From: Minisyncoccota bacterium
GTDB lineage: Bacteria > Patescibacteriota > Minisyncoccia > Phycocordibacterales > UBA9973
Assembly (NCBI GenBank): GCA_041659785.1
Contig: JBAZXO010000001.1
Span: 86,941 to 150,940, forward strand
Direction: 5' to 3'
DNA: 64,000 nt
This document shows, in pieces, positions 9,180 through 25,853 of the stretch. A program made the position numbers and the translations under genes. Below the pieces are notes generated by a model. That model was not told where the DNA came from and ran no database searches. It saw only the letters and a program-made list of their open reading frames with translations. Position 1 is the stretch's first letter. Every line of letters starts with the position of its first letter.

Positions 9180-10163
9180 GTGATAGTGAAAAATATCGTA
9201 ACAATTGGCGGGGGTACGGGTAGTTATACTGTCCTCTCAGGACTCAAACATATCCCAGATGTTTCTTTGTCTGCGCTTGTTTCTATGGCTGATGATGGCG
9301 GATCTACGGGGGTACTGAGGGATGAGCTCGGTGTATTGCCGCCTGGAGACGTTCGGCAATGTTTGGTGGCACTTTCTGAACATACCGATATAGTACGAAA
9401 GCTTATGAATTATAGGTTTAATGAAGGAACTCTTAAAGGACACAATTTTGGAAATATTTTCCTTGCAGCTCTGGAGAAAGTAACTGGAAATTTTATTGAA
9501 GGTGTCGAAGTGGCATCAGGAATTCTGAAAGTAAATGGTGTCGTGATACCCATAACGAGCAATAAGGCAGAATTATCTATATTGCTTTCCAATGGAAAAT
9601 TAATTGAAGGAGAAAATGAAATCAATCATTCAAATTTACAAGATGTCGGCATTGATAAGATTTTTTATAAAGACAATGTAGAATTAAACGAACACGCGAA
9701 AGAGGCTCTGTTAAAAGCTGATTATGTTATTCTCGGCCCCGGGAATTATTATTGTTCCCTTGTTCCAAATTTGATTGTGAATGGTTTTAAAGAAGCTATT
9801 ATAGAAAGTAAAGCGAAAATTATTCTGCCTATTAACCTCACAAATAAATTAGGACATACTACAAACTTCAAAGTAAGTAACTATGTGAACGATGTAGAGA
9901 AATATCTCGGTAAATTAGTCGATGTTATTTTAGTTAATAATGAAGAGCCATCAGCCGAACAAGTAGAACGATATAAACTTTTAGAAGGTGATGGTGTGCT
10001 CATCGAAGATGACTTCAAGGACGACAGAGTCGTCAGAGCTCCCCTGCTCTCGCATGTATTTTTCGAAAGAGCAGCTGCTGATGTTATACCCAGCACTAAA
10101 GGATTCATCCGTCACGATTCTGAAAAATTAGCTAACCGTATAAAAGAAATAATAAATAAATGA
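9180..10163 (+). CDS. YvcK/CofD-family protein (UPF0052, gluconeogenesis factor-like)
   Basis: IVTIGGGTGSYTVLSGLK...MADDGGSTGVLRDELGVLPPGDVRQCLVAL is the family signature. Confidence 0.8.
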   Translation: MIVKNIVTIGGGTGSYTVLSGLKHIPDVSLSALVSMADDGGSTGVLRDELGVLPPGDVRQCLVALSEHTDIVRKLMNYRFNEGTLKGHNFGNIFLAALEKVTGNFIEGVEVASGILKVNGVVIPITSNKAELSILLSNGKLIEGENEINHSNLQDVGIDKIFYKDNVELNEHAKEALLKADYVILGPGNYYCSLVPNLIVNGFKEAIIESKAKIILPINLTNKLGHTTNFKVSNYVNDVEKYLGKLVDVILVNNEEPSAEQVERYKLLEGDGVLIEDDFKDDRVVRAPLLSHVFFERAAADVIPSTKGFIRHDSEKLANRIKEIINK

Positions 10164-10191
10164 AGTATGTTGAGGAATTTAGTTCGTAATT

Positions 10192-12060
10192 TTATACTAT
10201 TTGTGACACGCGTAGTGCGTTGATGATGACTATTAGGTCTATCACCTCTTGGATCAAGGCTCCTGCAAGTGGTGAGATGATCCCTACGCTTCCTAATATC
10301 ATTGCGCCTACGCTTAATCCAATACCGATAAAGATACCTTGCTTGGCTACATTGATGGTCTTTTGAGCTATGTGGTAAACATCATGGATACGATTGATGC
10401 CTTCGCCTAATATCACCATGTCGGCGCTCTCGCTCGAAGCTGTCTTCCCTTTTGAGCCTAAAGCAATGCCTACTTCTGCTTGAGCTAGTGCCGGAGCATC
10501 GTTGATACCATCACCCACCATGACACAAGGCCTGTCAGTAGCTGGTATTTCTTTAATTATTCGCAATTTGTCTTCTGGTAAACACTCTGAATGAACTTCT
10601 TTTATATTTAACGCTATCCCTATTCTATCTGCGACACTTTGCTTGTCGCCAGAGAGTAAAATAATTCTCTGAATGCCATCCTTGCGTAATTCATCGAAAA
10701 GTTCATGTGAATCACTACGAAGTTTGTCATCGAGAACAATATAACCCATCACACTTTTTTCATGTGCCAAGAAGACTACAGACTTCCCTTCATTTTTAAA
10801 TTCTTCTAAAGTTTTTTCAATGTCTCCTGGAAGATCCGCGATAAATTTCTTAACATAAGACAATTTTCCAAAGATATATTTTACACCATCCACATTTCCT
10901 TCCACTCCACCACCGAATTCTTCTTTAAAATCTGTAGGAAATGAAAGTTTTAATTTTCTTTTTTCTGCTTCATTTACCATGGCTTCTGCGAGTACATGAG
11001 CGGAGAGCTGGTCGAGTGATCCAGCGATACGTACGAGCTTGTCTTCATCTCCTTCATAAGAGAAAACTCTATCTATCTGTGGTGTGCCTATTGTTACTGT
11101 CCCTGTTTTATCAAAAACGAAGCTTCGCGCTTCGGCGAGCTTTTCTAATGCTCCACCATTCTTCACAATTATTCCATGTTTTGTTATCTTGCTCATGCCT
11201 GAAATTATTGCGATAGGAGTAGCTAATATGAGTGGGCATGGTGTGGCTACCACGAGTACTGCGAGCATCCGAACGATGTCATGTGTCAGAAACCATGTAC
11301 CTCCGGCAAATATGAATGTAGTAATAGTAAAATAAACACTGTATCGATCAGCGAGTCTTATCATTGGTGCACGACTTTGTTCTGCTTCTTGTACTAGTTT
11401 TACTATGTGTGCATAAGAGCTTTCACTTGCGAGCTTCGTCACTAGGAGCGTCATTGTACTGTTTTGATTTACTGTTCCAGAGTATACGAATGATCCTTCA
11501 CTTTTTTGTCCGGGGTTGCTCTCTCCAGACAGAGTTGATTCATCAACATAAGTATTTCCTTCTTCGACTATTCCATCGATAGGTATCACTTCTCCAGGTT
11601 TGACCATGACTTTTTGTCCTATTTGTACTTCTTCTATTGGGACATCTGTAATAGTTTTTCCATCAGTTAAATGAGCTTTGTTGGGTGCTCTCGAAAGTAA
11701 TAGAGATAAGTCTCGACGTGCTCGGAAGAATGCATAGCTCTCGAGTGCTTCTCCACCTGAGAGCATTAAAAGGATTATCAATCCGGCTAAATATTGACCG
11801 AAAAAGAATGTAGCAAATAATGCGACGCTCGCGATCAGGTCGACTCCTAGATTTTTTTTAATTATTTCTTTAATTAAGTTAAACCATATTTGTATTGAGC
11901 CGAAGAAAAGTACCCATTTTAATATTTCTTTCCCTAATTCATCTTTTCCATCTAAATATAAAAAAATATATAAAAGTATAGACAAAATACTCACGAAAGT
12001 TATCACAAGGGTAAGTATTTTTTCTTTTAAAACTGATTTTATAAAATTGTTAAAATTCAT
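10192..12060 (-). CDS. P1B-type heavy-metal translocating P-type ATPase, probably Cu, without N-terminal HMA domain
   Basis: DKTGTVT phosphorylation motif and GDGINDAPAL. The TM motif is TPCPLILATP (atypical CPx). It has 8 predicted TM helices and a neighbouring cupredoxin gene. Confidence 0.8.
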   Translation of the reverse strand: MNFNNFIKSVLKEKILTLVITFVSILSILLYIFLYLDGKDELGKEILKWVLFFGSIQIWFNLIKEIIKKNLGVDLIASVALFATFFFGQYLAGLIILLMLSGGEALESYAFFRARRDLSLLLSRAPNKAHLTDGKTITDVPIEEVQIGQKVMVKPGEVIPIDGIVEEGNTYVDESTLSGESNPGQKSEGSFVYSGTVNQNSTMTLLVTKLASESSYAHIVKLVQEAEQSRAPMIRLADRYSVYFTITTFIFAGGTWFLTHDIVRMLAVLVVATPCPLILATPIAIISGMSKITKHGIIVKNGGALEKLAEARSFVFDKTGTVTIGTPQIDRVFSYEGDEDKLVRIAGSLDQLSAHVLAEAMVNEAEKRKLKLSFPTDFKEEFGGGVEGNVDGVKYIFGKLSYVKKFIADLPGDIEKTLEEFKNEGKSVVFLAHEKSVMGYIVLDDKLRSDSHELFDELRKDGIQRIILLSGDKQSVADRIGIALNIKEVHSECLPEDKLRIIKEIPATDRPCVMVGDGINDAPALAQAEVGIALGSKGKTASSESADMVILGEGINRIHDVYHIAQKTINVAKQGIFIGIGLSVGAMILGSVGIISPLAGALIQEVIDLIVIINALRVSQIV

Positions 12061-14383: not shown

Positions 14384-15085
14384 TTATTTAATTGATAAAT
14401 ACATCTTTCTTTTGTCATCCCTGAGCCTTTCTATGGAATACCTTAGTGTAGTTCTTGGCATATTTGTGATGTTTTCGTTTAAAAATTTTTCTAGAGTCGG
14501 CTCGGACTTTTTACCTACTTCACGCAACATCCATCCGACTGCTTTGTGGATGAGGTCGTGTTTATCAGGCAAAAGTATCCTCGCTAATTTTAGCGTATCT
14601 TTAAAATCATTGTTCCTGATAAAAGCAAAAGTAGAAATAATAGCAATTCTCCTGTCCCAGAGTGTCTTAGACTTTACAAGTTTATAAAGCACTGATCTAT
14701 CTTGCTTAAGTAAATAATCACCCAAGATGTAAGGTGCTGAAGTATCCACCAAGTCCCAATTATTTATATTCTTTTTATTTTTTAAATAAAATTTTACTAT
14801 TTCTCCTTTTTCCTTTTCTTTTGCATTTTCGTATTTAAAAACAAGAATCTCTAAAGCGACAAATCGATGTTCGTGCATGCCACTTACGAGAAGCTTCCTC
14901 ACATCATTCAAATTAAGGTTTATATATTTCTTGGCTACCACCCTCTGTGCTGAAACAGTAATCCCTAAAAATTTATCCCCCTCTGCATATTCGCCTTTAC
15001 CGGTTTTGAAAAATCTTTGGAGAATTTTTGCTTTGAGCGGGTTTGCAAGTAATTTTAATTCTTTTATAACGTCAACTGAGTTCAT
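14384..15085 (-). CDS. DNA alkylation repair protein, AlkD/AlkC-like HEAT-repeat glycosylase family
   Basis: HEAT-like repeat protein with WDLVDTSAPYILGDYL and AVGWMLREVGKK, typical of the DNA_alkylation family. Confidence 0.7.
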   Translation of the reverse strand: MNSVDVIKELKLLANPLKAKILQRFFKTGKGEYAEGDKFLGITVSAQRVVAKKYINLNLNDVRKLLVSGMHEHRFVALEILVFKYENAKEKEKGEIVKFYLKNKKNINNWDLVDTSAPYILGDYLLKQDRSVLYKLVKSKTLWDRRIAIISTFAFIRNNDFKDTLKLARILLPDKHDLIHKAVGWMLREVGKKSEPTLEKFLNENITNMPRTTLRYSIERLRDDKRKMYLSIK

Positions 15086-15090
15086 AATTT

Positions 15091-15408
15091 TTAATTAAAT
15101 TCAAACAGAACATCTCGAAAGTTTTCAATCCTGTTATTTTTATCAAGTTTAATTCCCTCTTTTTTGTATAAAACTAGCCTTGTCTTTGCATATTTATCAT
15201 TTAGCCACACCTTCCCATCTGCATATACTATACGATGAAATGGTATGTTCTTTTGCCCCGCCTCATAAGCTTTACCCAAGATGGCAGTGATGCTCTGCGA
15301 AGCCATAGGCCCTGCACCCGCTGCGCGAGCTATCCTGCCATATGTAGTGATTCTTCCTTTAGGAATCTCCAATGCTATTTCCACCACTCGTTCACTAAAA
15401 GTTTTCAT
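15091..15408 (-). CDS. alkyltransferase-like (Atl) protein: MGMT DNA-binding domain lacking the acceptor cysteine
   Basis: MGMT C-domain fold pattern (ITTYGRIA...) but the active-site PCHRV is replaced by PFHRIV. Confidence 0.6.
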   Translation of the reverse strand: MKTFSERVVEIALEIPKGRITTYGRIARAAGAGPMASQSITAILGKAYEAGQKNIPFHRIVYADGKVWLNDKYAKTRLVLYKKEGIKLDKNNRIENFRDVLFEFN

Positions 15409-15410
15409 AA

Positions 15411-15980
15411 CTATACTAAAATTTTAGCCCTTGCTTTTTTCCAATCCTCTTTTAGTAAACCGTATATATTTTGATCATGGAACTTACCGTTTGCCTTGCA
15501 CCTCTTAATTTTTCTTTGTATTCCTTCTAGTTTATACCCCATTTTCAATTGAGTGGCATTAGAAGCTTTGTTATTTGTCGCTACAGTAGAATTTAATCTT
15601 ATAAATTTGAGTTTATTAAACGCATAATCATTTAAAGCTATTTTTGCTTCAGTTATATACCCTTTTCTCCAATATTTTTTATTAATCCAGGACCCCGTTG
15701 TACCGTTTTGAGAATAGGTATCAATTTTATAAATACCAATAGCACCGATAACTTTCTTCTCAGATTTTAACTCAATAAAAAATTCTAGCTCGTTTTTGAT
15801 TTTTTGTTTCCAGCTTTTATTAATCTTTTTAATATATTCTTGTGCATCCTTTTTTGTATAAGGATAAGGTACAGTTGAAAGCATTTTTGAAACGTCATAT
15901 TCACCGGCCCCCTCCATGAGGTCCTTCCAGTCATCTTTTCGGGGTTCTCTGATGATTAATCTCTTGGTTTCTAATTGCAT
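15411..15980 (-). CDS. GNAT family N-acetyltransferase (RimJ/RimL-like)
   Basis: KRLIIREPRKDDWKDL start and acetyl-CoA binding region WINKKYWRKGYITEA. Confidence 0.7.
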   Translation of the reverse strand: MQLETKRLIIREPRKDDWKDLMEGAGEYDVSKMLSTVPYPYTKKDAQEYIKKINKSWKQKIKNELEFFIELKSEKKVIGAIGIYKIDTYSQNGTTGSWINKKYWRKGYITEAKIALNDYAFNKLKFIRLNSTVATNNKASNATQLKMGYKLEGIQRKIKRCKANGKFHDQNIYGLLKEDWKKARAKILV

Positions 15981-15992
15981 AATTTTATTATA

Positions 15993-16229
15993 TCAGATTA
16001 ATTCTAATTTTTCAGACCTTTTTAATCCTTTGATCTTAGCCTCTTCTTTTAAAGCGGTGGATCTGGTTTTAAATTTTTTTGAGTAAACTAACTTTACTGG
16101 TCGGCGACCAGAAGTATATTTCGCGCCTAATTTACTACTATTATGTTCAATGACTCTACGTTTCAAATCTGTAGTAATTCCAGTGTATAAAGTCTTATCA
16201 GCGCACTTGAGAATATATACGTAATACAT
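15993..16229 (-). CDS. GIY-YIG nuclease domain protein (UPF0213/YhbQ-like)
   Basis: MYYVYILKCADKTLYTGITTDLKRRVIEHN. The start was moved to the internal Met at 16229 so that it does not overlap ogt. Confidence 0.7.
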   Translation of the reverse strand: MYYVYILKCADKTLYTGITTDLKRRVIEHNSSKLGAKYTSGRRPVKLVYSKKFKTRSTALKEEAKIKGLKRSEKLELI

Positions 16230-16236
16230 TATTTTA

Positions 16237-16533
16237 TTATATAAAACTAACTCCTTCTTTGAGAAGCAATGCATGTTTAGTTTTGGTTCCGCCTTTTCCA
16301 GAATATCCACCGAGGGAACCATCGCTCCTGATAACTCTGTGACAAGGAATAGTTATAGGCATAGGATTAGCGCCGACAGCATTCGCCACCGCACGCACAG
16401 CCTTCGGCTTGCCGATCTTCTTCGCAAGTTCTTTGTATGTGAGAGTCTTCCCTTTTGGAATATCAAGCAATGCCTTCCAAACCTTTTTCTGGAATGCTGT
16501 ACCCTTTAGTTTTTCAATATCAGTTGAACGCAT
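16237..16533 (-). CDS. ogt: methylated-DNA--protein-cysteine methyltransferase (single-domain Ogt)
   Basis: [24 protein letters not shown]...[25 protein letters not shown] contains the PCHRV active site. Confidence 0.8.
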   Translation of the reverse strand: [98 protein letters not shown]

Positions 16534-16535
16534 TA

Positions 16536-16928
16536 TTATTCAGGCTTGTTGTATTGAGATAGACCAAGGATGTTCCCTTCGGAATCCTTAAACCAAGCGA
16601 GGAAGCCCATAGATCCGTTTTCCCCTAGTGGAGTTTTGCCTTTTACGACAAAACCGCCATTTTCAACAATTTTACTCAAAGCTAAGTCCATATCTGGAAC
16701 ATCAACATAAAACATTGGATACGGCATACTAGGGTCACGCTTACTAGAACCCCCGTTTATAAAACCATATTCAGTTGGCTGCATTTTCGCATCTACCGGC
16801 CCAGTCTGCCAGCTTGTATAACTAAATTGCTCCCACTCAAATGGCTTCCAATCAAAAACGTTCTGATAAAATTTCTTCGCTCGCTCCTTGTCATCCCAAG
16901 GAAATTCAAAATGTGTAACTTTGTTCAT
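16536..16928 (-). CDS. VOC / glyoxalase-bleomycin resistance family protein
   Basis: 130 aa with a VOC fold pattern (FEFPWDD...FYVDVPDMD...GFLAWFKDSEGN). Confidence 0.65.
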   Translation of the reverse strand: MNKVTHFEFPWDDKERAKKFYQNVFDWKPFEWEQFSYTSWQTGPVDAKMQPTEYGFINGGSSKRDPSMPYPMFYVDVPDMDLALSKIVENGGFVVKGKTPLGENGSMGFLAWFKDSEGNILGLSQYNKPE

Positions 16929-17098: not shown

Positions 17099-20068
17099 CT
17101 ATTTATTAATTTTCCTTATAACATACTCAAACACTTTTTCTTGAACAAACTTTTTAAGTTCGGGACTTTGATCTAATTTTTGATAAAGATTGAAATGATT
17201 ATCCAATACTCCAACAAGCTCATCTTGAAATAATTGATCAAATTTTAATTTTGCTGAATCTTTACTATTATTTCTAACTGATCCTTGAAGAATTTCACTT
17301 TTAATAAGACGCAGGCTTAAATCATTCAAAATAACTTTATCAGAATCAGTAAAGTTCGTTCCATACCTTTCGTTAATTTCTTTTATTATTTTCGAAAGAA
17401 TGTCGGTTTCTTCTTCAGTTTGCCCTTTTGAACTACCTCCACCCCCCATTGGGTCAATTTCTCCATCCTTATTCTCAAGCAAAACATTTATTTCACCTTT
17501 CTTTTCAATTTTATATGTTTCCATATCAATTGCTTCGAGGACTTCATACGGCAATAAATTTTTTCTTCTTGGTAATTTTCTAATCAAAAATTTTAAGAAT
17601 ATATAGAGTTTCTCAAGTTGAGGGTCTTCAAAGGTAACAATTTGAGAAATGAATGCATACTTTTTTAAGTAATCAAAAGCAGTAGTTTTAAAACCTTCCA
17701 TCTCTTCTTCTGTTAAATTTTCTTCCTTAATTCTTGAGACTACTCCATCAATGATAAAATTAAGCTTATCGGGAGTTGCTCCACCGAAATATTCTTCAGT
17801 AAATCCATTTATCTCAAAATCAGTGAAAAATTTAAAACCACGTACCTCACGCTCAAGGTCATGTAATATATTTGGGTTGGTAGCTTCTGAGAGTATTGTT
17901 GTTGTGTAATAAGGTTGAAAAGATTCTTTTATATCATCAGTTAAATTAACAAAATCAAGTACAAATGTATCATTTTTACCATATGTAGTTCTATTTAAAC
18001 GTGATAGTGTCTGAACTGCATTTACCCCGCCCAGCTTTTTATCGACATACATTACCGAAAGCAATGGTTGATCAAAACCTGTTTGGAATTTTTCAGCAAC
18101 AATCAAGAATTTATATTCATCCTTTTTGAACTCTTCCGCTGTTTTACTTTCTGAAATACCATTCATCTGACCCTCGGTGTATTCTAATTTTGTATCTACA
18201 TCTTTCACAGTACTAGAAAATGCTACGAGAGCTTTGTGGTGATAACCTTTTTCTTTTAGATATTTGTCAAAGGCGATTTTATAACGAACTGCATGCAAGC
18301 GAGATTTAGTGACCACCATCGCTTTTGCCCTACCGCCTATAAGTGATACAATCTTTTCTTCAAAATGTTCAGCCATGATAGCAACCTTTTTATCAATTGC
18401 ATGTTCATGTCTTTCTACATAGCCAATCAAAAGTCTCTGCGCCTTTTTCTTATCGAATTCTGGATCATCTTCTACTTTTTTCAAAAGTCCAAAATATGTC
18501 TCATAGGTCGTGTAATTTTTTAACACATCAAGAATAAACTTTTCTTCGATAGCTTGTTTCATTGAATACAATGAAAAAGGAACAAACTTACCAGTTAAAG
18601 GATCTTCATTTCCAAAAAGCTCAAGCGTTTTTTGTTTTGGGGTTGCAGTGAAAGCAAAGAAGCTTAAATTTGGCGATGCAACCTTTCTTGCCTTCATTCG
18701 CTCAACAATCTGATCTTCTATTGTTTTAAAAGCCTTCTCTTCTTTTTCTTCTTCCACTTGTGCTTCATCTAAAGTCAGCACTTGTCTCAAGTCAGCTGCT
18801 GATTCACCAGACTGTGATGAATGAGCCTCATCGATAATTACCGCAAATTTTTTACCCTCTGTTTGTTCTATCGTCTCTACAATTACAGGAAATTTTTGTA
18901 GAGTACTTGTAATAATCTTTACCCCAGATTTTAATGATTCACTAAGTTCCGCTGATGACTCAACGTGCTTAACTAGACCAGTTATTTGACTGAAGCTTTT
19001 AACCGTATCAGACAATTGCCTATCGAGCACGCGACGATCAGTAACTACAATAACTCCATCAAATACATTTTTATTAGAATTATCATGTAATTCAGCCAAA
19101 CGATGCGCTATCCAAGCGATAGTATTACTTTTTCCAGACCCAGCACTATGCTGAATAAGATAATTTTTTCCTGAACCATTAACCTTTGCATCTACAACGA
19201 CTTTCCTTACAGTATCAAGCTGATGATACCTAGGAAATATGATTTTCTCTTCCTTATATTTTTTTGTATTTTTATCTTCTCTTTCTTCAGTAACTTCTTG
19301 TATAAAATTACCAAGTAAATCAAAAACACTATCTTTAGATAAAATATCTTCCCATAAATAGTGAGTCTTGTATTTCCCTTCTGGCGCATCGGGATTACCA
19401 GACGAGCCTTTATTCCCTTTATTAAATGGTAAAAAGTACGTGGTAAGCCCTGTAAGGCGTGTAGCCATATAAGCTTGCTCAGTATCTACTGCAAAATGAG
19501 TTAAACACCTCTTAAATGACAATAATTTTTCCTTTTGATCACGATCTGTCCTGTATTGGGAAATAGCATTAATAACATTTTGCCCAGTAAATTGATTTTT
19601 AAGTTCCATAGTAAATACAGGCAAGCCATTCACAAAAATAACCATATCAATAGAATTTTCATTTTTCTCACTGTATTTAACTTGTCGCGTTACACTCAAA
19701 ATATTTCCTACATAATCAGCTAATGTTTCAGGGTTTTTATCATTCTCCGGCCTCGAGTACGCCAAATGAATATTTACTCCACGATCTTTAACTCCTTCGC
19801 GAATAACACTCAAGAGCCCGCGAGTAGAAATTTCTTCATCAAGCCTGAGAAGAAATTTCTGCTCCGCTTCCTCCCCATATTGCTCAATAATTTTATCCCA
19901 ACTTTCCTTTTGAGTATTTTTTATAAATTCCAAAACAAGCTCCGTATCCATACAAAGTTTTTTATCATAAGAAGAGTTCTGCCGTTTTCTATATCCTTGT
20001 GCCCCCACTAATTCCCCCTCAATAAATTCCTCAAATCCTGATTCTTTTGTGTTTGTTTTTTGTGTCAT
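17099..20068 (-). CDS. hsdR: Type I restriction enzyme R subunit
   Basis: 989 aa with an HsdR N-terminal domain, IQHSAGSGKSNTIAWIAHR Walker A and IIDEAHSSQSG DEAH box. Confidence 0.9.
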   Translation of the reverse strand: MTQKTNTKESGFEEFIEGELVGAQGYRKRQNSSYDKKLCMDTELVLEFIKNTQKESWDKIIEQYGEEAEQKFLLRLDEEISTRGLLSVIREGVKDRGVNIHLAYSRPENDKNPETLADYVGNILSVTRQVKYSEKNENSIDMVIFVNGLPVFTMELKNQFTGQNVINAISQYRTDRDQKEKLLSFKRCLTHFAVDTEQAYMATRLTGLTTYFLPFNKGNKGSSGNPDAPEGKYKTHYLWEDILSKDSVFDLLGNFIQEVTEEREDKNTKKYKEEKIIFPRYHQLDTVRKVVVDAKVNGSGKNYLIQHSAGSGKSNTIAWIAHRLAELHDNSNKNVFDGVIVVTDRRVLDRQLSDTVKSFSQITGLVKHVESSAELSESLKSGVKIITSTLQKFPVIVETIEQTEGKKFAVIIDEAHSSQSGESAADLRQVLTLDEAQVEEEKEEKAFKTIEDQIVERMKARKVASPNLSFFAFTATPKQKTLELFGNEDPLTGKFVPFSLYSMKQAIEEKFILDVLKNYTTYETYFGLLKKVEDDPEFDKKKAQRLLIGYVERHEHAIDKKVAIMAEHFEEKIVSLIGGRAKAMVVTKSRLHAVRYKIAFDKYLKEKGYHHKALVAFSSTVKDVDTKLEYTEGQMNGISESKTAEEFKKDEYKFLIVAEKFQTGFDQPLLSVMYVDKKLGGVNAVQTLSRLNRTTYGKNDTFVLDFVNLTDDIKESFQPYYTTTILSEATNPNILHDLEREVRGFKFFTDFEINGFTEEYFGGATPDKLNFIIDGVVSRIKEENLTEEEMEGFKTTAFDYLKKYAFISQIVTFEDPQLEKLYIFLKFLIRKLPRRKNLLPYEVLEAIDMETYKIEKKGEINVLLENKDGEIDPMGGGGSSKGQTEEETDILSKIIKEINERYGTNFTDSDKVILNDLSLRLIKSEILQGSVRNNSKDSAKLKFDQLFQDELVGVLDNHFNLYQKLDQSPELKKFVQEKVFEYVIRKINK

Positions 20069-20093
20069 ATTATTTTTATCTATTATAAAGATA

Positions 20094-20513
20094 TCATCTT
20101 ATGATAATTTTATCACTAAATTCTCCTTTTAATGCTTCTTTTAAATCACCGTCAGCTGTCACAACTTCAATATATCCATCATCAAATAAAGTTCTCTGAG
20201 TTTGAAGAATTGTCGCGATAGATGCCATAATTGAGATATCTCCTAACCCTTTTAATCCATAAAATGAAACAATATTATTATATTTATTTAAAAAAGTCTT
20301 GTAGTTTTCTAAATATTTTACTTCATCAAAGGAATCTTTTTGAATATCAATAAATTTTATTCTTTGAATTTTGTTTCTATAATTTGGAGATAATGATTTA
20401 AGAATTTCTATTTCATCTTTTAATTCTTCTGTAATAAAAAATTCATCAGATGAATCAAATGATCTTTCATCTCTTATAAATTTATTTAAAATATTTGTAT
20501 CTATGATTTTCAT
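20094..20513 (-). CDS. PIN-like domain protein embedded in the R-M operon
   Basis: MKIIDTNIL N-terminus with acidic residues (D5, E~29, D~92, TADGD~121) spaced as in PIN nucleases. There is a 4-nt ATGA overlap with the upstream ORF. Confidence 0.45.
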   Translation of the reverse strand: MKIIDTNILNKFIRDERSFDSSDEFFITEELKDEIEILKSLSPNYRNKIQRIKFIDIQKDSFDEVKYLENYKTFLNKYNNIVSFYGLKGLGDISIMASIATILQTQRTLFDDGYIEVVTADGDLKEALKGEFSDKIIIR

Positions 20514-21715
20514 ATTTCTGATCGATATTCAATCCATTTTTCCTTTCTAAATCGGCCAAATATTATCATTTGTGCTTGATTAGGATAAATGGAATTATTC
20601 TTAATGGCTGTATTAACTTTATTAAAAGCAACATCTCCACAAAATTTTTTTACTGAAGTTGATATATGAGGATGTGTAAACCATTTTTTTATATCTTGGA
20701 AAATACTGGGTTCTCTTTCAGGAAGTTTTAATAATTCTTGAAGTTCTTTATCAATTTTTTTCCTAAAACGCAAAATAAATAATATAGCGGTGTAAGATAT
20801 CTTATACTGTTCTTTAAGATTATTGATCAACTCCTTGTTAATATTTTCTGTTTTTATATTATCTGTGACAGATTTTGGTAGTAGAAATTCAGATACAACA
20901 TCATTCATTAACTTAAATTTTTTATCATCCTTTATTTTTTTAATCGAATAACTTTCAATAGAATGTGAGTATTCTTCCATACCAATAACCACCAATAAAT
21001 AAAGTAACGTATATATCTGCCTAAAATGATTTTCGTCTGGATTTATTTCACTTGGTAAAAATACAAAGGGTATTTTTTTATCTTTTACTACAAAGCCACT
21101 GGTATTTCTGTAAAGATCGAAGGTGTTTTTTATTTCAGGCAGAATACCATTTGTTCTTACACCTTGAGAAATATTAATATTCTCTTTACCTTGTATTTTT
21201 TCAATAAGATATTCTTTTGACTTTTCAGCGGAGTCTCTCGTTCTAAAATAATTAAGATCAATATTAAAATAATTTATTATATAATTCACAGCCTCTTGAA
21301 TACTTTTAGATTTTAAAGAACCTGAAAAATCACACATAAAATTATCTGGCAATTGCAACACAACAAACGATTGTATTCTAATTTGTCTATCTATTATTCT
21401 TTTTGACGTTGTGTCACCCCTACCTTTTCTCTTATGTATAGTAAGTAAATCTTTAGGAAATTTGTCCAATCTATTGTCTTCAATGTTTTTTAATTCTTTT
21501 TTTAAATTATTTTCATCCAACAAAAACATTTGCCAAGGTAAATGAATTTTTTCACTTATATCTTTCAGTTCATTGAATGTTATTGATCCTTTTTCAAAAG
21601 CATTTTTGAATACCTCATGTTCAGTAAGTTTTTCTTCAGGATAAAAATTTAATAAAGTTTTAAAAACCTCATCATCTAATTCTACTGCCTTGGTTGTTAC
21701 AGATTTCAAAATCAT
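20510..21715 (-). CDS. hypothetical 401-aa protein embedded between hsdS and hsdR
   Basis: Long ORF with AT-rich codon usage like its neighbours. It has no Walker A, no HExxH and no motif I recognise. Confidence 0.45.
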   Translation of the reverse strand: MILKSVTTKAVELDDEVFKTLLNFYPEEKLTEHEVFKNAFEKGSITFNELKDISEKIHLPWQMFLLDENNLKKELKNIEDNRLDKFPKDLLTIHKRKGRGDTTSKRIIDRQIRIQSFVVLQLPDNFMCDFSGSLKSKSIQEAVNYIINYFNIDLNYFRTRDSAEKSKEYLIEKIQGKENINISQGVRTNGILPEIKNTFDLYRNTSGFVVKDKKIPFVFLPSEINPDENHFRQIYTLLYLLVVIGMEEYSHSIESYSIKKIKDDKKFKLMNDVVSEFLLPKSVTDNIKTENINKELINNLKEQYKISYTAILFILRFRKKIDKELQELLKLPEREPSIFQDIKKWFTHPHISTSVKKFCGDVAFNKVNTAIKNNSIYPNQAQMIIFGRFRKEKWIEYRSEI

Positions 21716-21719
21716 AAAT

Positions 21720-22949
21720 TTATACTTTTACTTTCCCAGTTACAACATTTGAAATAAGAGAAAATTTATATTCTTCCAAAAGTTTAATTGATGTTTTAAT
21801 ATTTTTCCTCACTAAGTTCATTTTTATTAATAATGATTCTATTTTTTCTTCAATATCCTTTGACGGAACTCTTATTTTTTCTAATAATAAAATTTTTATA
21901 TTCAATGGCTTATTACGTCCAGCAGAACCTCTTGAGGATTCATTAAGTATATGATCACCAAATTTTGTCATTAGTAGAGCTAATAAGTATTCAGTTTTTA
22001 CAATACCGTCCCTTAATAAATAATACCTATGCGATACAACACACCCACTTTCATCTTCACCAGCAAAAGCAACTGCACCTTCCCACGCAAATTGTCCACT
22101 TATAATAAGATCTCTTGAAATTACTTTATAGAAATCTGATTCTTTTATGTCTTTACCCAACTGAAAATCTTTATGAAAAAGTCCTCTGCCTCTATTATAT
22201 AAACCTAGAGCAGTGTATTCAGAATAATCTTCTATATTAATTGGATTTTCGGATAATTTAAATAAATTTTTAATTCTAATAATTTTTCCTTTACCTTTTA
22301 TTTGTTCATTCATAGCAATTGAAACAATCTCCTCTTTTAAGAGTTCGATCTGCTTTTCTTTTTTCTCAATAATTTCCTCAATCATTATTGTTTTATCGTC
22401 AATATAGTCTGCAATTTTTGTTTGCTGTTCTGGTGAAATTATTAAAATTGGGAAATTAACCAGTGTATCATCTTTTAATGTCCAACGATGATCCACAGAA
22501 ACACCGTTACCAAAAGGATGGAATATACCCTCAAAATAATGTTTTTGAAAAAAATAATTATAATATTGTGAGTTTGTCTTTTTATCTTTTTTTCTTAATG
22601 TAGAATAGGCAGGACTAATTATGCCTTCATATTTTGAGGCATCAACAAAACCTCTTACGAGATCCATGGGATTTAAAACTATGTCTCCTTTTATTATTTT
22701 TCGATACCCTTCGTAACTTGCCGCAATTTGTCCTTCATTATTTGAAACATCCCTAGTTTTTATACCACTCAAAGTAAGTGATAATATTTCAGATTCAGAA
22801 TTATTAAAAGATCGTTCTTTCAAGAGATTAAAAACTTCTTTAACTTTTCCAACTTTCCATTCCTTTGGAATTTTCCCCAACCATTCAACCCCAGAATCTT
22901 TATATTCAGAATATTTCTCATATTTTTTTGTAAGGTTTAATGTTTGCAT
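21720..22949 (-). CDS. hsdS: Type I restriction-modification specificity subunit
   Basis: 409 aa with two target-recognition domains separated by conserved repeats. Typical HsdS N-terminus: ...WLGKIPKEWKV.KVKEV. Confidence 0.85.
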   Translation of the reverse strand: MQTLNLTKKYEKYSEYKDSGVEWLGKIPKEWKVGKVKEVFNLLKERSFNNSESEILSLTLSGIKTRDVSNNEGQIAASYEGYRKIIKGDIVLNPMDLVRGFVDASKYEGIISPAYSTLRKKDKKTNSQYYNYFFQKHYFEGIFHPFGNGVSVDHRWTLKDDTLVNFPILIISPEQQTKIADYIDDKTIMIEEIIEKKEKQIELLKEEIVSIAMNEQIKGKGKIIRIKNLFKLSENPINIEDYSEYTALGLYNRGRGLFHKDFQLGKDIKESDFYKVISRDLIISGQFAWEGAVAFAGEDESGCVVSHRYYLLRDGIVKTEYLLALLMTKFGDHILNESSRGSAGRNKPLNIKILLLEKIRVPSKDIEEKIESLLIKMNLVRKNIKTSIKLLEEYKFSLISNVVTGKVKV

Positions 22950-22950
22950 A

Positions 22951-24705
22951 CTATAATTGCTTCAGTAAATCAAGAAGTTCATTCTCTACCTTTTCAATAT
23001 CTTTTTCTATTGCTTCCAAACTTCTTGGCGCTTCGTATTTGTAGAAATAGCGGGTAAATGGAATTTCATAACCTACAATACCAGTTTTTCCATCTTTATG
23101 GTCCACAACAGATTCATTAATCCAAGCATCTGGAACATAAGGTTTTACCTCTTTGTCGAAGTACTCTTTAATATCCATATCATAGGGCACATTTTCATAG
23201 TCTCGTAACGATTTATCTATTTCAATATTGCCTTTTTTATCTTTAGAAATTTTTCCATCAACCATAAGTGGACGTTCTATTTGAATTTGCCTATATGCAA
23301 AATCAGTCGTTTTAAAAATCTTAGAAAATTCATTCTCTTCAAACTTTTCATAAAGTTCTTCTATTCTCTTTTTTGATTCAGCATCAATCTCATGACGCTT
23401 GCTGCCAAGACTCTTACGAGTCTTTTTGAAAAATGTACGTGCATCTATGAGCTGAACTTTACCCTTCTTTTCTTTTGGTTTTCTATTGGTTACAAACCAT
23501 AAATATGTATTTATGCCAGTGTTATAGAAAAGTTGATCAGGTAGTGCCACGATTGTTTCCAATAGATCTTTTTCTAATATCCATCTTCGTATTTCACTTT
23601 CTCCGCTTCCTGCATCTCCAGTAAATAGTGGTGAACCATTGTGAACTATAGCAATACGCGACCCGCCATCTTTTTCAGGCTTCATTTTAGAAATGAGATG
23701 TTGTAAAAATAAAAGCTGACCGTCGGAAATACGAGGAGTACCAGCACCAAAACGTCCAGCATATCCACGAGACGCTTCACGTTCTACGACATCTTTATCT
23801 TTTTTCCAATCAACTCCATAAGGAGGATTTGAGATCCCGTAATCAAAAACTTCACCAAAAAATTGATCATTGGATAAAGTGCTAGCCTTAGAATGATCTT
23901 TTTCTCCGCCACGAATAAGATCTGGGTTGTCTCCCTTTATCAACATATCAGACTTTGCCACAGCATAAGTGACTGAATTTAATTCTTGACCATATAAAAA
24001 TATATCTGCATCTGGATTGATGTTTCCTAAAATATAATCTTTAGCAACTGAAAGCATCCCAGACGTGCCGCATGCAGGGTCATATATCTTTTTAATAACA
24101 TGTGGTTTTTTAAGGTCTTTTATGTCAGGAAGAAATAATAACTTTGTCATTACCCCTATGACGTCTCGTGGCGTGTAGTGTTCTCCAGCTGTTTCATTAG
24201 ACATTTCAGAAAACTTTCTAAGTAATTCTTCAAAAATTTGTCCCATTTGGTGGTTATCTACTTTTGATGGGTGTAGATCAACTTTATTTATTTCCTGAAT
24301 TACCAAATAAAGAAGATTACCACCTTCAAGACGTTCAAGCTGTTTACTGAAATCAAATTTCTCAAAGATATCTTGAACATTCTTACTATATCCATTTAAA
24401 TATTGTTTGAAATTTTTTGCTAAATGCTTTGGTTCTCCGAGTAAATTTCTAAAATCATATTCTGAGATATTATAAAAGGCCGCCCCAGATGTTCTCTTGA
24501 GAATAGGATCAAGATCGTTTATTTTTCCCTTATATTCATTATATTTTACAAGAACTTTCTCTTTACTGTCTGCAAGGATAGAATCAAGGCGTTTTAAAAC
24601 CAATAAGGGTAGTATTACATCTTGGTATTCATGTTGTTTCCAGCCACCACGCAAGATGTCCGCTATACTCCAGATCGTCGATGCTTTTTGATTAAAATTT
24701 TCCAT
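22951..24705 (-). CDS. hsdM: Type I restriction-modification DNA methyltransferase (N6-adenine)
   Basis: HsdM_N domain, SAM-binding DPACGTSGML and catalytic NPPYG. Confidence 0.9.
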   Translation of the reverse strand: MENFNQKASTIWSIADILRGGWKQHEYQDVILPLLVLKRLDSILADSKEKVLVKYNEYKGKINDLDPILKRTSGAAFYNISEYDFRNLLGEPKHLAKNFKQYLNGYSKNVQDIFEKFDFSKQLERLEGGNLLYLVIQEINKVDLHPSKVDNHQMGQIFEELLRKFSEMSNETAGEHYTPRDVIGVMTKLLFLPDIKDLKKPHVIKKIYDPACGTSGMLSVAKDYILGNINPDADIFLYGQELNSVTYAVAKSDMLIKGDNPDLIRGGEKDHSKASTLSNDQFFGEVFDYGISNPPYGVDWKKDKDVVEREASRGYAGRFGAGTPRISDGQLLFLQHLISKMKPEKDGGSRIAIVHNGSPLFTGDAGSGESEIRRWILEKDLLETIVALPDQLFYNTGINTYLWFVTNRKPKEKKGKVQLIDARTFFKKTRKSLGSKRHEIDAESKKRIEELYEKFEENEFSKIFKTTDFAYRQIQIERPLMVDGKISKDKKGNIEIDKSLRDYENVPYDMDIKEYFDKEVKPYVPDAWINESVVDHKDGKTGIVGYEIPFTRYFYKYEAPRSLEAIEKDIEKVENELLDLLKQL

Positions 24706-24716
24706 ATTGTTTATTA

Positions 24717-25853
24717 TTATTTAGTAAATAAATGCAAATACTCTTTTAAATAAAAGATCCTATCTTTTCTCCGACCTGTTTTTTCGGTAAATAATCCTAA
24801 TTTTTCAAAATCTTCAGCGATAGCAGATGCTGTAGGAAAAGTAACAGAAAGCATGGACTCAATGTCTCTTATAGTGACAACTGGTTGAGAAAACAGTAAT
24901 CGTAAAAGTTCCTTGCCAAGTTTTTGGCGTTTTACACCCATACCTTTTTCTATAGCAGTCTCATATTTCTTTCGTAGATCTATTATTTTTTCTAATGTTT
25001 CTCGCGCATTCTTTGCAGTTTCAGATACTCCAGTAAGAAAAAAACGAACCCAATGTTCTTTATCGTTTGTCTCACGGACACGTGAAAGAGCATCATAATA
25101 TTCAGTACGATGTTTTTCAAAAAAATCGGAAATATAGAGAGTGGGTTTTTTTATAATACCCAAACTCACCAAATGAAGAGTTATAAGAAGCCTACCAATA
25201 CGTCCATTCCCATCCAAAAATGGATGTATCGTTTCAAATTGATAATGGGAAAGGGCAATTTTTATAATATCAGGTATATTTACATTTTTATTGTGCCAAA
25301 ATTTTTCAAGATCACTAAGTAACTCAGAAATCTCCTCATGATGAGGAGGAATAAAAACAGCATCTTTAAGAGTGGCTCCGCCAATCCAATTTTGGCTTCG
25401 ACGAATTTCTCCTGGTAATTTTGTATACCCGCGTACGCTTGAAAGAAGAACCTTATGTGTATCTTTTACAAGTCTTATTGAAAGAGGAAGTTTTTCAAGC
25501 TCCGCAATAGAAAAATTTATTGCCTTAACATAATTTTGTACTTCTTCCCAATCATCTCTTTTCTCTGGATTAATTTCAAGCTCAGGTAAAAGGGCTTCAT
25601 CAAGCTTTGTATGAGTTCCTTCAATTTTACTTGAAGTGGTAGCTTCTTTTGCAATATGCATTTTTATAAAAAAATCTACGTCAGGTATTAATTTAGAAAA
25701 AGCATTGAGCTCGCCCAAATATCGCATAGAATCAGAAAGAAGTAGATCAATTCTTTTATCTGCCCATTCAAAATTTCTATTTACCAATGAAGGTTTAAAA
25801 CTTTTATAACCATCATTTTGTCTATATGTTCCTGACTTATATTTATCAGCCAT
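24717..25853 (-). CDS. Fic family protein (class II, N-terminal inhibitory motif)
   Basis: [14 protein letters not shown] Fic motif, an upstream SSKIEG matching [ST]xxxE[GN], and a C-terminal winged-helix region. Confidence 0.85.

Follow-up and report, generated by a model that had tools for sequence, protein, structure and literature searches.

The window analysed here, a 64,000-nucleotide stretch of contig JBAZXO010000001.1 from a Candidatus Paceibacterota (Patescibacteria) metagenome-assembled genome, carries a Type I restriction-modification (R-M) operon in which hsdS and hsdR are separated by two genes, here called A and B. The operon is encoded on the minus strand in the order SoFic-hsdM-hsdS-A-B-hsdR (Table 1). 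An earlier note on this DNA, made by reading the sequence without database searches, had placed two co-directional open reading frames (ORFs) in this interval, with a 4-nt gap to hsdS and an ATGA overlap at their own junction, and all of its coordinates hold. The TAA stop codon of hsdS ends at 21720 and is followed, after the 4-nt spacer, by the ATG of A at 21715; at the other end 25 nt separate the stop codon of B from the ATG of hsdR. The overlap makes translational coupling of A and B probable.

Comparison with characterised proteins revealed that A is homologous to VapB52, the antitoxin of Mycobacterium tuberculosis VapBC52, and that it has lost the catalytic residues of the VapB52 peptidase, while B was predicted to adopt a PIN fold. 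We consider it probable, though well short of certain, that the two genes form a toxin-antitoxin (TA) or abortive-infection module of the VapBC52 type whose antitoxin cannot cleave itself.

Table 1 Features of the A-B pair and of the operon that surrounds it in the window
Feature	Position	Strand	Description or basis
hsdR (context)	17099-20068	minus	989 amino acids (aa); Pfam HSDR_N, SWI2_SNF2, ResIII, T1R_D3-like
Gene B, predicted toxin/effector, PIN-fold nuclease	20094-20513	minus	139 aa
Gene A, VapB52-like antitoxin or sensor, degenerate IrrE/M78 middle domain	20510-21715	minus	401 aa
A/B ATGA overlap (A stop codon, B start codon)	20510-20513	minus	sequence reading
A C-terminal domain, aa 351-401	20513-20665	minus	four helices; homologous to VapB52 C-terminal domain
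A middle domain, aa 105-330	20726-21403	minus	IrrE/ImmA (M78) fold and helical subdomain resembling a helix-turn-helix (HTH)
Degenerate zinc-binding/catalytic motif, Y239-L240-L241-V242-V243 for H-E-x-x-H	20987-21001	minus	alignments
A junction, aa 82-104	21404-21472	minus	conserved basic segment KRKGxGxVTSKRIIDR; after VapB52 FR-motif position
A N-terminal domain, aa 1-81	21473-21715	minus	beta-hairpin then helices (residues 15-81), predicted structure
hsdS (context)	21720-22949	minus	Pfam Methylase_S
hsdM (context)	22951-24705	minus	Pfam N6_Mtase (E-value 2.6e-58), HsdM_N
Fic/SoFic gene, head of gene string (context)	24717-25853	minus	Pfam Fic_N, Fic; PADLOC SoFic (E-value 2.5e-115)

Homology of A to VapB52 and loss of the peptidase residues

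The structure and function of VapBC52 (Rv2515c/Rv2514c) have been described by Singh et al. (NAR 2026, PMC13273310). The five-helix, HTH-like N-terminal domain of VapB52 grips the outside of the VapC52 dimer and is essential for binding; the middle domain combines an IrrE-type zinc peptidase (HEXXH; ligands H216, H220 and E245; C229 as cysteine switch) with a helical HTH subdomain; and the four helices of the C-terminal domain occlude the active site of the toxin. When activated by single-stranded DNA (ssDNA) the peptidase cuts VapB52 at a conserved FR motif situated where its N-terminal and middle domains meet, freeing the tRNase VapC52, which also cleaves tRNAs of phage D29 and provides phage resistance in M. 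smegmatis (PMC13273310).

Direct searches did not uncover this relationship. Scans of A and B against Pfam, NCBIfam, PADLOC and PHROGs returned noise only. In PADLOC-DB v2 A gave a chance-level match to Cmr5 (E-value 0.01) and B no match, and the weak matches to Cmr5, YutD and RdgC were taken as chance; the family scans matched no P-loop domain in either protein. Searches of PDB sequences with the A and B family profiles gave nothing usable, and the link to PDB entry 9VZY emerged only through the canonical relatives of A. These are full-length relatives of the distant A homologue P0281, encoded on plasmids of Methylobacterium, Cupriavidus, Caballeronia, Rhizobium and Sinorhizobium; they are annotated 'XRE family transcriptional regulator' or 'ImmA/IrrE family metallo-endopeptidase', and in six of six cases the next gene is a 'DUF4411 family protein'. 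The profile of the canonical proteins matches chain A of 9VZY (E-value 9.4e-30), and the DUF4411 profile matches chain D of 9VZY as well as 9VZZ. The chain lengths in 9VZY (three of 393 residues, six of 162), their 1:2 ratio and the positions of HExxH and FR fit the VapB52-delta23:VapC52 complex of Singh et al. (PMC13273310).

When aligned by hhalign, the A family matched an alignment of VapB52 and canonical proteins with a probability of 98.6% (E-value 1.3e-15, 311 columns). Profile-profile comparison with the canonical plasmid proteins gave 98.2% (E-value 3.6e-14, 305 columns) and that with P0281 96.9% (E-value 1.5e-10). Residues 39-385, ~85% of A, are homologous to residues 33-372 of the VapB52 chain and span all three domains. 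The 401-aa protein, in which no motif had been recognised, is thereby related over most of its length to antitoxins that carry an Xre-type HTH and an IrrE/M78 peptidase and pair with DUF4411 PIN toxins. Its domain plan, judged by predicted secondary structure, matches the three-domain plan of VapB52.

In the N-terminal domain, residues 39-66 correspond to the C-terminal half of the VapB52 Xre-type HTH domain (hhalign pairs 'AFEKGS--ITFNELKDISEKIHLPWQMFLL' with 'AWEVGEVVPTIAQLRKAAEVYKRSLAVFFL'), and residues 1-38 are unaligned with the HTH core. HTH models of Pfam gave zero matches in A and 33 relatives; in a canonical relative HTH_3/HTH_31 is found at residues 12-69, with HTH_3 at 12-38. The question arises whether A could mainly be a transcription regulator, a controller of hsdR or of the whole operon akin to C proteins, with B as an accessory nuclease. 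The N-terminal domain of VapB52 does resemble the R-M controller protein C.Csp231I (PMC13273310), and A lies immediately upstream of hsdR in several operons. Against a regulator speak the want of any Pfam HTH match in A or its 33 relatives, the unaligned residues 1-38 and the constant pairing of A with B, whether hsd genes are present or not, and we hold this explanation to be very improbable. An HTH-derived N-terminal domain within a three-domain antitoxin, as expected for a VapBC52-type module, is the origin that we would propose for this part of A.

Between the N-terminal and middle domains lies the basic junction, of which aa 88-98 are predicted to be disordered (predicted local distance difference test score, pLDDT, <50). 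R82, K95, R96, S104, R106, D109 and R110, in or near the junction, are invariant. The middle domain is predicted to be alpha/beta, then to continue with three helices, over residues 105-329 in all, and the M78 fold is present. The window protein itself was not matched by the Pfam model Peptidase_M78 (PF06114); four of the 33 relatives match this model below its gathering threshold (best 18.6 versus 22 bits), and the threshold is passed by the distant relatives P0281 (56.3 bits, E-value 3.6e-15) and P0287 (23.4 bits). A second linker, at residues ~340-346, is of low confidence in the predicted structure. It is followed by the C-terminal domain, with helices at 351-359, 361-372, 378-386 and 391-400 and invariant residues F358, G360, Q382 and G387, which hhalign aligns with the C-terminal domains of VapB52 and of the canonical relatives.

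The site that binds zinc in VapB52 has been replaced in A. H216 of VapB52 aligns with Y239, E217 with L240, H220 with V243, C229 with S250 and E245 with F267 (hhalign), and the window stretch 'QIYTLLYLLVVIG' aligns with 'RSFTLLHELCHIFLG' of P0281 and 'LFSLLHEFVHVVL' of VapB52. That the protein has no HExxH, as had been read from the sequence, is confirmed by these alignments. The D-F-R of the VapB52 self-cleavage site is D80-N81-R82 in A, R82 being invariant and the Phe position variable. We then extended the comparison to 97 full-length sequences, of which one is the window protein and 96 come from the 150 best cluster representatives. HExxH was lacking in 96 of them, the sole exception being P0281, which has HELCH at the aligned site and adjoins a true DUF4411 gene. 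The column of the first His reads L42/Y20/F13/S9, that of the Glu L68/M24, and that of the second His L30/C27/S13 and also V. Scaffold residues near the lost motif are kept in the same sequences, namely R232 (97%), T236 (90%), S206/G207 (93-95%), P216 (100%) and L278 and P280 (90%). By these sequence criteria the A-type peptidase is dead throughout the clade, yet the middle domain is under purifying selection. A retains none of the zinc ligands, and its catalytic Glu, cysteine switch and FR-motif Phe are likewise gone, so that it cannot release the toxin by autoproteolysis.

In an alignment of 33 sequences, each 39-80% identical to the window protein, 40 columns of A are invariant, which indicates purifying selection. 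A decaying pseudogene was ruled out, as A is full length and retains these 40 columns. We also ruled out an accessory domain of HsdS or HsdR, to which A has no similarity; the pair is moreover found in loci without hsd genes.

Gene B and the proposed mechanism

The predicted structure of B supports the PIN fold that had been suspected from its acidic residues. D5, E34, D92 and D121 form an acidic tetrad that is invariant across 24 partners from different loci. Three of the four positions named in the earlier note (5, 92 and 121) therefore stand; 'position 29' is better replaced by E34, because E29 and E30 vary. None of the Pfam PIN models (PIN, PIN_2 to PIN_6 and others) matched B, and weak sub-threshold matches to PIN_4/PIN_5 were seen only for distant partners (L031, L033). 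We considered B as a diverged DUF4411 protein, and the outcome at the sequence level was negative. Neither B nor six of its partners matched any Pfam model at E-value <=10, DUF4411 (PF14367) included, and the alignment of B partners matched two DUF4411 alignments with an hhalign probability of 2-3%, with only the first two acidic motifs aligning; comparison with a single DUF4411 sequence was likewise negative. The fold searches, in the hit lists examined, did not bring up VapC52 (9VZZ). A PIN nuclease outside DUF4411 fits the swapping of PIN-like families within HTH-DUF955-PIN modules (PMC5499597). By analogy to VapC toxins and VapC52, B is most likely a metal-dependent endonuclease that cuts tRNA or rRNA.

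If A and B act as VapB52 and VapC52 do, A would neutralise B by holding a B dimer with its N-terminal domain and shielding the active site of B with its C-terminal domain. The dead M78 domain would persist as a binding or sensing scaffold, as the M78 scaffold, the elements that line the cleft and the basic junction are all conserved in A. Two routes by which B might be released are conceivable. In the first, a trigger or ligand would induce a conformational rearrangement of A that frees B. In the second, host proteases would turn A over by way of its two predicted flexible linkers once infection shuts off the synthesis of A.

Genomic contexts of the pair

We found 155 database relatives of A. 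The HMMER profile of the family matches 514 cluster representatives at E-values <=1e-3, 166 at <=1e-10 and 54 at <=1e-30; the representatives stand for clusters at 50% identity, and some of the weaker matches are probably ordinary, active M78 peptidases. When one genome of each GTDB species was scanned, a search for which the alignment of B partners was too variable to serve as a seed, 24 loci were obtained, and three core-family places were added by exact look-ups. Nearly all of the 24 scanned loci, and almost the entire core A family, are in metagenome-assembled genomes (MAGs) of Patescibacteria. Searches by tblastn with A and with P0207, a distant dead-peptidase protein, gave no matches in plasmid and phage collections, which are annotated records mostly from cultured organisms.

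A homologue of B follows A in all 23 complete distinct loci, in 20 of them with a 4-nt overlap. Exceptions are L014 and L022, whose contigs end inside or just after A, and L028, in which A is truncated and a B homologue was not found. The existence of these relatives and the strict pairing argue against a chance arrangement of ORFs, and they agree with the conserved and probably translationally coupled two-gene module envisaged from the sequence. In one locus (L029, 7980-9614) A is split into overlapping ORFs of 189 and 231 aa next to an apparently intact B with all acidic residues; the split is either a frameshift from an error of MAG assembly or a real disruption of the putative antitoxin.

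A PIN-like partner is also present in distant dead-peptidase subfamilies (L031, L033, L036 and L037). The order in L031 is hsdR-hsdM-hsdS-A-B. L036 and L037 are islands of the type IV secretion system (T4SS)/GmrSD type, and their partners match the B-family profile with a probability of 98.6% (L036) and, weakly, 17.8% (L037). The partner in L033 is a 150-aa PIN-like ORF with a TTG start that was truncated by the gene caller. In L033-L035 (7169-7621), downstream of a 391-aa A homologue, the product called has only 92 aa; the 150-aa ORF overlaps the stop codon of A and reads FFVDTNAL ... GKADPIIVAYAL ... VTND. Public annotations may under-call such partner genes.

Type I R-M operons house the pair in 9 of 23 informative loci. 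In eight of the nine A directly follows hsdS, usually with hsdR on the B side; the ninth is L015, where the pair comes after hsdR. Placement between hsdS and hsdR recurs in L001, L006, L007, L011, L013 and L017. In L001 an extra 290-aa gene without a Pfam match (9743-10615) lies between B and hsdR, and hsdM is separated from hsdS by three more small genes, including a DUF2321 gene. Among the closest relatives of the window operon, identities are 82-84% for HsdR, 88-91% for HsdM, 76-79% for A and 57-59% for B. HsdS of the window, in contrast, is only ~28% identical to that of the L006 and L007/L008 operons, despite the similar HsdR and HsdM, as expected if target-recognition domains were swapped and the A-B module retained. 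The conservation of A, B, HsdR and HsdM indicates that the module belongs stably to this operon lineage and was not recently inserted in this genome.

Within the window, G+C content falls to 24-27% in 20000-22000 (B, A and the 3' part of hsdS), compared with 33-38% in hsdR, hsdM and the flanks. As the closely related operons L006 and L007 carry the same module, this dip reflects composition or fast evolution and not recent insertion. No terminator-like sites were found on the minus strand between 25853 and 17099. Promoter-like sites were not above the shuffle expectation (37 versus 41.5) and no internal promoter is claimed; the sole good and suitably placed minus-strand match is just upstream of the Fic gene. 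The pair would be transcribed together with the Type I operon. The Fic gene lies 11 nt upstream of hsdM, and a Fic gene is also found just upstream of the A-B pair in L024. The genes that flank the operon are housekeeping genes, with dnaX and Dus on one side. On the other side, directly downstream of hsdR (14384-16928, minus strand), runs a series of genes related to DNA damage and xenobiotics, which encode a glyoxalase/bleomycin-resistance-like protein, two MGMT DNA-binding-domain proteins, a GIY-YIG protein, a GNAT acetyltransferase and a DNA_alkylation repair enzyme.

The placement of the pair recalls prrC, which in EcoprrI lies between hsdS and hsdR. It raises an explanation in which the pair guards restriction as PrrC does: A would sense inhibition of Hsd by anti-restriction proteins of a phage, or the DNA fragments or ssDNA made by HsdR, and unleash the PIN nuclease as a second-line abortive response. 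The frequency of Type I operons among the informative loci, the position of A directly after hsdS in eight of them and the hsdR-hsdM-hsdS-A-B order of a distant subfamily are in keeping with a guardian, as is the retention of the module with conserved HsdR and HsdM across related genomes while hsdS varies. A review places prrC within a Type IC locus (PMC12707154), and ssDNA activates VapB52 and CapP, the live homologues (PMC13273310). However, 14 of the 23 informative loci have no hsd genes nearby, and in some of these the pair stands beside Shedu, Type ISP or GmrSD genes or after dnaK. The pair thus works as a self-contained unit, and a guardian role cannot be general. Homology to PrrC or RloC is absent, and the canonical VapBC52-type plasmid pairs are unlinked to hsd genes. 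Taken together, we regard guarding of restriction as unlikely to be the role of the pair.

A more specific proposal assigns the sensing to the degenerate domain itself. The IrrE-type peptidase of the widespread dead-peptidase VapB52-like clade would have turned into a non-catalytic sensor, which in Type I operons of Patescibacteria would detect a consequence of restriction or anti-restriction (ssDNA or DNA fragments produced by HsdR, or a phage inhibitor bound in the degenerate cleft) and free the PIN RNase without proteolysis. We think this quite unlikely; if true, restriction would here have a PrrC-like 'guard' whose components are wholly unlike those of PrrC.

Most of the loci without hsd genes lie next to genes of defence or of mobile elements. 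Neighbours include Shedu SduA, a Type ISP enzyme, an EcoRI-like methylase with GmrSD/HNH, a Schlafen-group-3 helicase, STAND/AAA_16 and AAA_13 ATPases, Fic, and serine or tyrosine recombinases; at one locus the pair merely follows dnaK. In the survey, Type I R-M operons included, the pair sits among defence or mobile-element genes, which supports the defence setting suggested in the earlier note. A did not turn out to be a housekeeping enzyme or an Hsd accessory protein; a PIN fold is predicted and homologues do occur in defence contexts, so that none of the findings which the earlier note had named as fatal to its proposal was made.

Two islands hold further genes of related kinds. In L036 (9901-12561), ~3 kb from the A-B pair, there are a HigB-toxin-like gene, a gene for a 402-aa Peptidase_M78 protein and a Beta_protein gene, with an HTH_3 and SocA_Panacea gene upstream; several M78- and Panacea-type TA-like modules are clustered in this one island. 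In L030 (1482-8236) two co-oriented AbiJ_NTD4/Abi_C genes of 308 aa flank the relative with HExxH and its DUF4411 gene, and an Mrr_cat gene is close by; the DUF4411 ORF is short (122 versus ~160 aa).

The mobile-element neighbours could alternatively point to a plain addiction module, that is, a selfish type II TA system that stabilises its host R-M island or mobile element and has no part in phage defence. Type II TA systems typically consist of two genes, as the pair does; its frequent neighbours include serine recombinases, a tyrosine integrase and T4SS genes; and the canonical relatives sit on plasmids beside partition and recombinase genes. In contrast, VapBC52, the characterised homologue, makes its host resistant to phage and cuts phage tRNAs (PMC13273310), and the neighbours are enriched in dedicated defence genes beyond those for mobility. 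Addiction and defence are also not mutually exclusive. A purely selfish module seems to us decidedly doubtful.

We therefore return to a VapBC52-type module with an antitoxin unable to cleave itself, against which several observations weigh. The binding of B by A and its neutralisation are drawn from homology. The one trigger demonstrated experimentally for the class, ssDNA-induced self-cleavage, is excluded for A, because all of its catalytic residues are gone. As B is not detectably related to DUF4411 and VapC52 at the sequence level, the interfaces of VapB52 and VapC52 may not carry over, and the unaligned residues 1-38 make DNA binding and autoregulation by A uncertain. The split A beside an intact B in L029, unless it is a sequencing or assembly error, argues against A as an essential antitoxin. 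Finally, the 14 informative loci without hsd genes show that the link to Type I restriction is not obligatory.

Relation to VapBC52 and other known systems

Although it had been put forward as the best candidate for an undescribed system, the A-B pair belongs to a known class. Three-component TA systems of HTH, DUF955/COG2856 and PIN-like parts were predicted in 2009 (Makarova, PMC2701414) and 2017 (Matelska, PMC5499597), and the class was characterised in 2026 as VapBC52 (PMC13273310), the first experimentally dissected example of the long-predicted modules of HTH, M78 peptidase and PIN toxin, with ssDNA-activated self-cleavage of the antitoxin as the proposed trigger. Against this background the A clade serves as a natural separation-of-function variant, in which the whole antitoxin scaffold is under purifying selection although no catalytic residue is left. 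Two accounts offer themselves: the M78 domain may sense or act as a scaffold independently of proteolysis, or A-B systems use a different trigger. The clade also adds a PIN toxin family outside the coverage of Pfam, and it shows that the site directly after hsdS is a recurrent point of insertion in the Type I R-M operons of Patescibacteria, organisms with small genomes and few recognised defence systems. Practical value, for example in annotation models for defence-system finders, would depend on experimental validation.

The likeness to VapBC52 extends to several levels. In both systems a large antitoxin gene (~400 aa) lies upstream of, adjacent to and co-directional with the gene of a small PIN toxin (~140-170 aa). 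Both antitoxins begin with a helical N-terminal domain, continue with a middle domain that joins an IrrE/M78 fold to a helical subdomain, and end in a four-helix C-terminal domain, and both toxins have a PIN fold with four acidic residues, which in VapC52 are D6, E48, D99 and E117 (PMC13273310). In architecture, homology and fold A-B therefore agrees with the VapBC52 type; it departs from it in the zinc site, the FR motif and the DUF4411 identity of the toxin. Self-cleavage triggered by ssDNA is impossible in A, from which HExxH and its Glu ligand have been lost together with the Cys switch and the FR site. In contrast to VapBC52, B is not detectable as DUF4411, the N-terminal domain of A matches no HTH model, and the pair is often found inside Type I R-M operons, with a core family almost entirely from Patescibacteria MAGs.

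The predicted HTH-DUF955-PIN systems likewise have an M78-type protein co-transcribed with a PIN-like nuclease. Their PIN-like families are exchanged (DUF4411, COG2405, PIN_14/20/26), and PIN-like genes have been noted near hsdM and hsdS. Descriptions of these systems stress a conserved HExxH and a detectable Xre HTH, however, both of which are absent from A.

IrrE/PprI, ImmA and CapP are active M78 zinc proteases that cleave separate Xre-type repressors after DNA damage. Unlike these proteins, A lacks all ligands and its partner is always a nuclease, not a repressor. Regulators of the PrpR/RamB type use an M78-like domain as a sensing module, which in PrpR is non-proteolytic and binds a ligand. 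PrpR differs from A in being a transcription factor of propionate metabolism without a nuclease partner.

PrrC of EcoprrI shares with A-B the embedding of an RNA-cutting effector gene in a Type I R-M operon, and by analogy the two may follow a common logic, that of a latent RNase linked to restriction. PrrC is, however, a single anticodon nuclease of the ABC-ATPase type that is held latent by the Hsd complex. It has no homology to A or B, neither of which matched a P-loop domain, and the A-B pair also occurs where hsd genes are missing.

In the searchable literature we found no account of a dead-peptidase VapB52-like clade or of the A-B pair in Patescibacteria. What is new here, within a class already known, is a peptidase that is dead clade-wide, a PIN toxin outside the Pfam families, and the repeated placement of the pair directly after hsdS.

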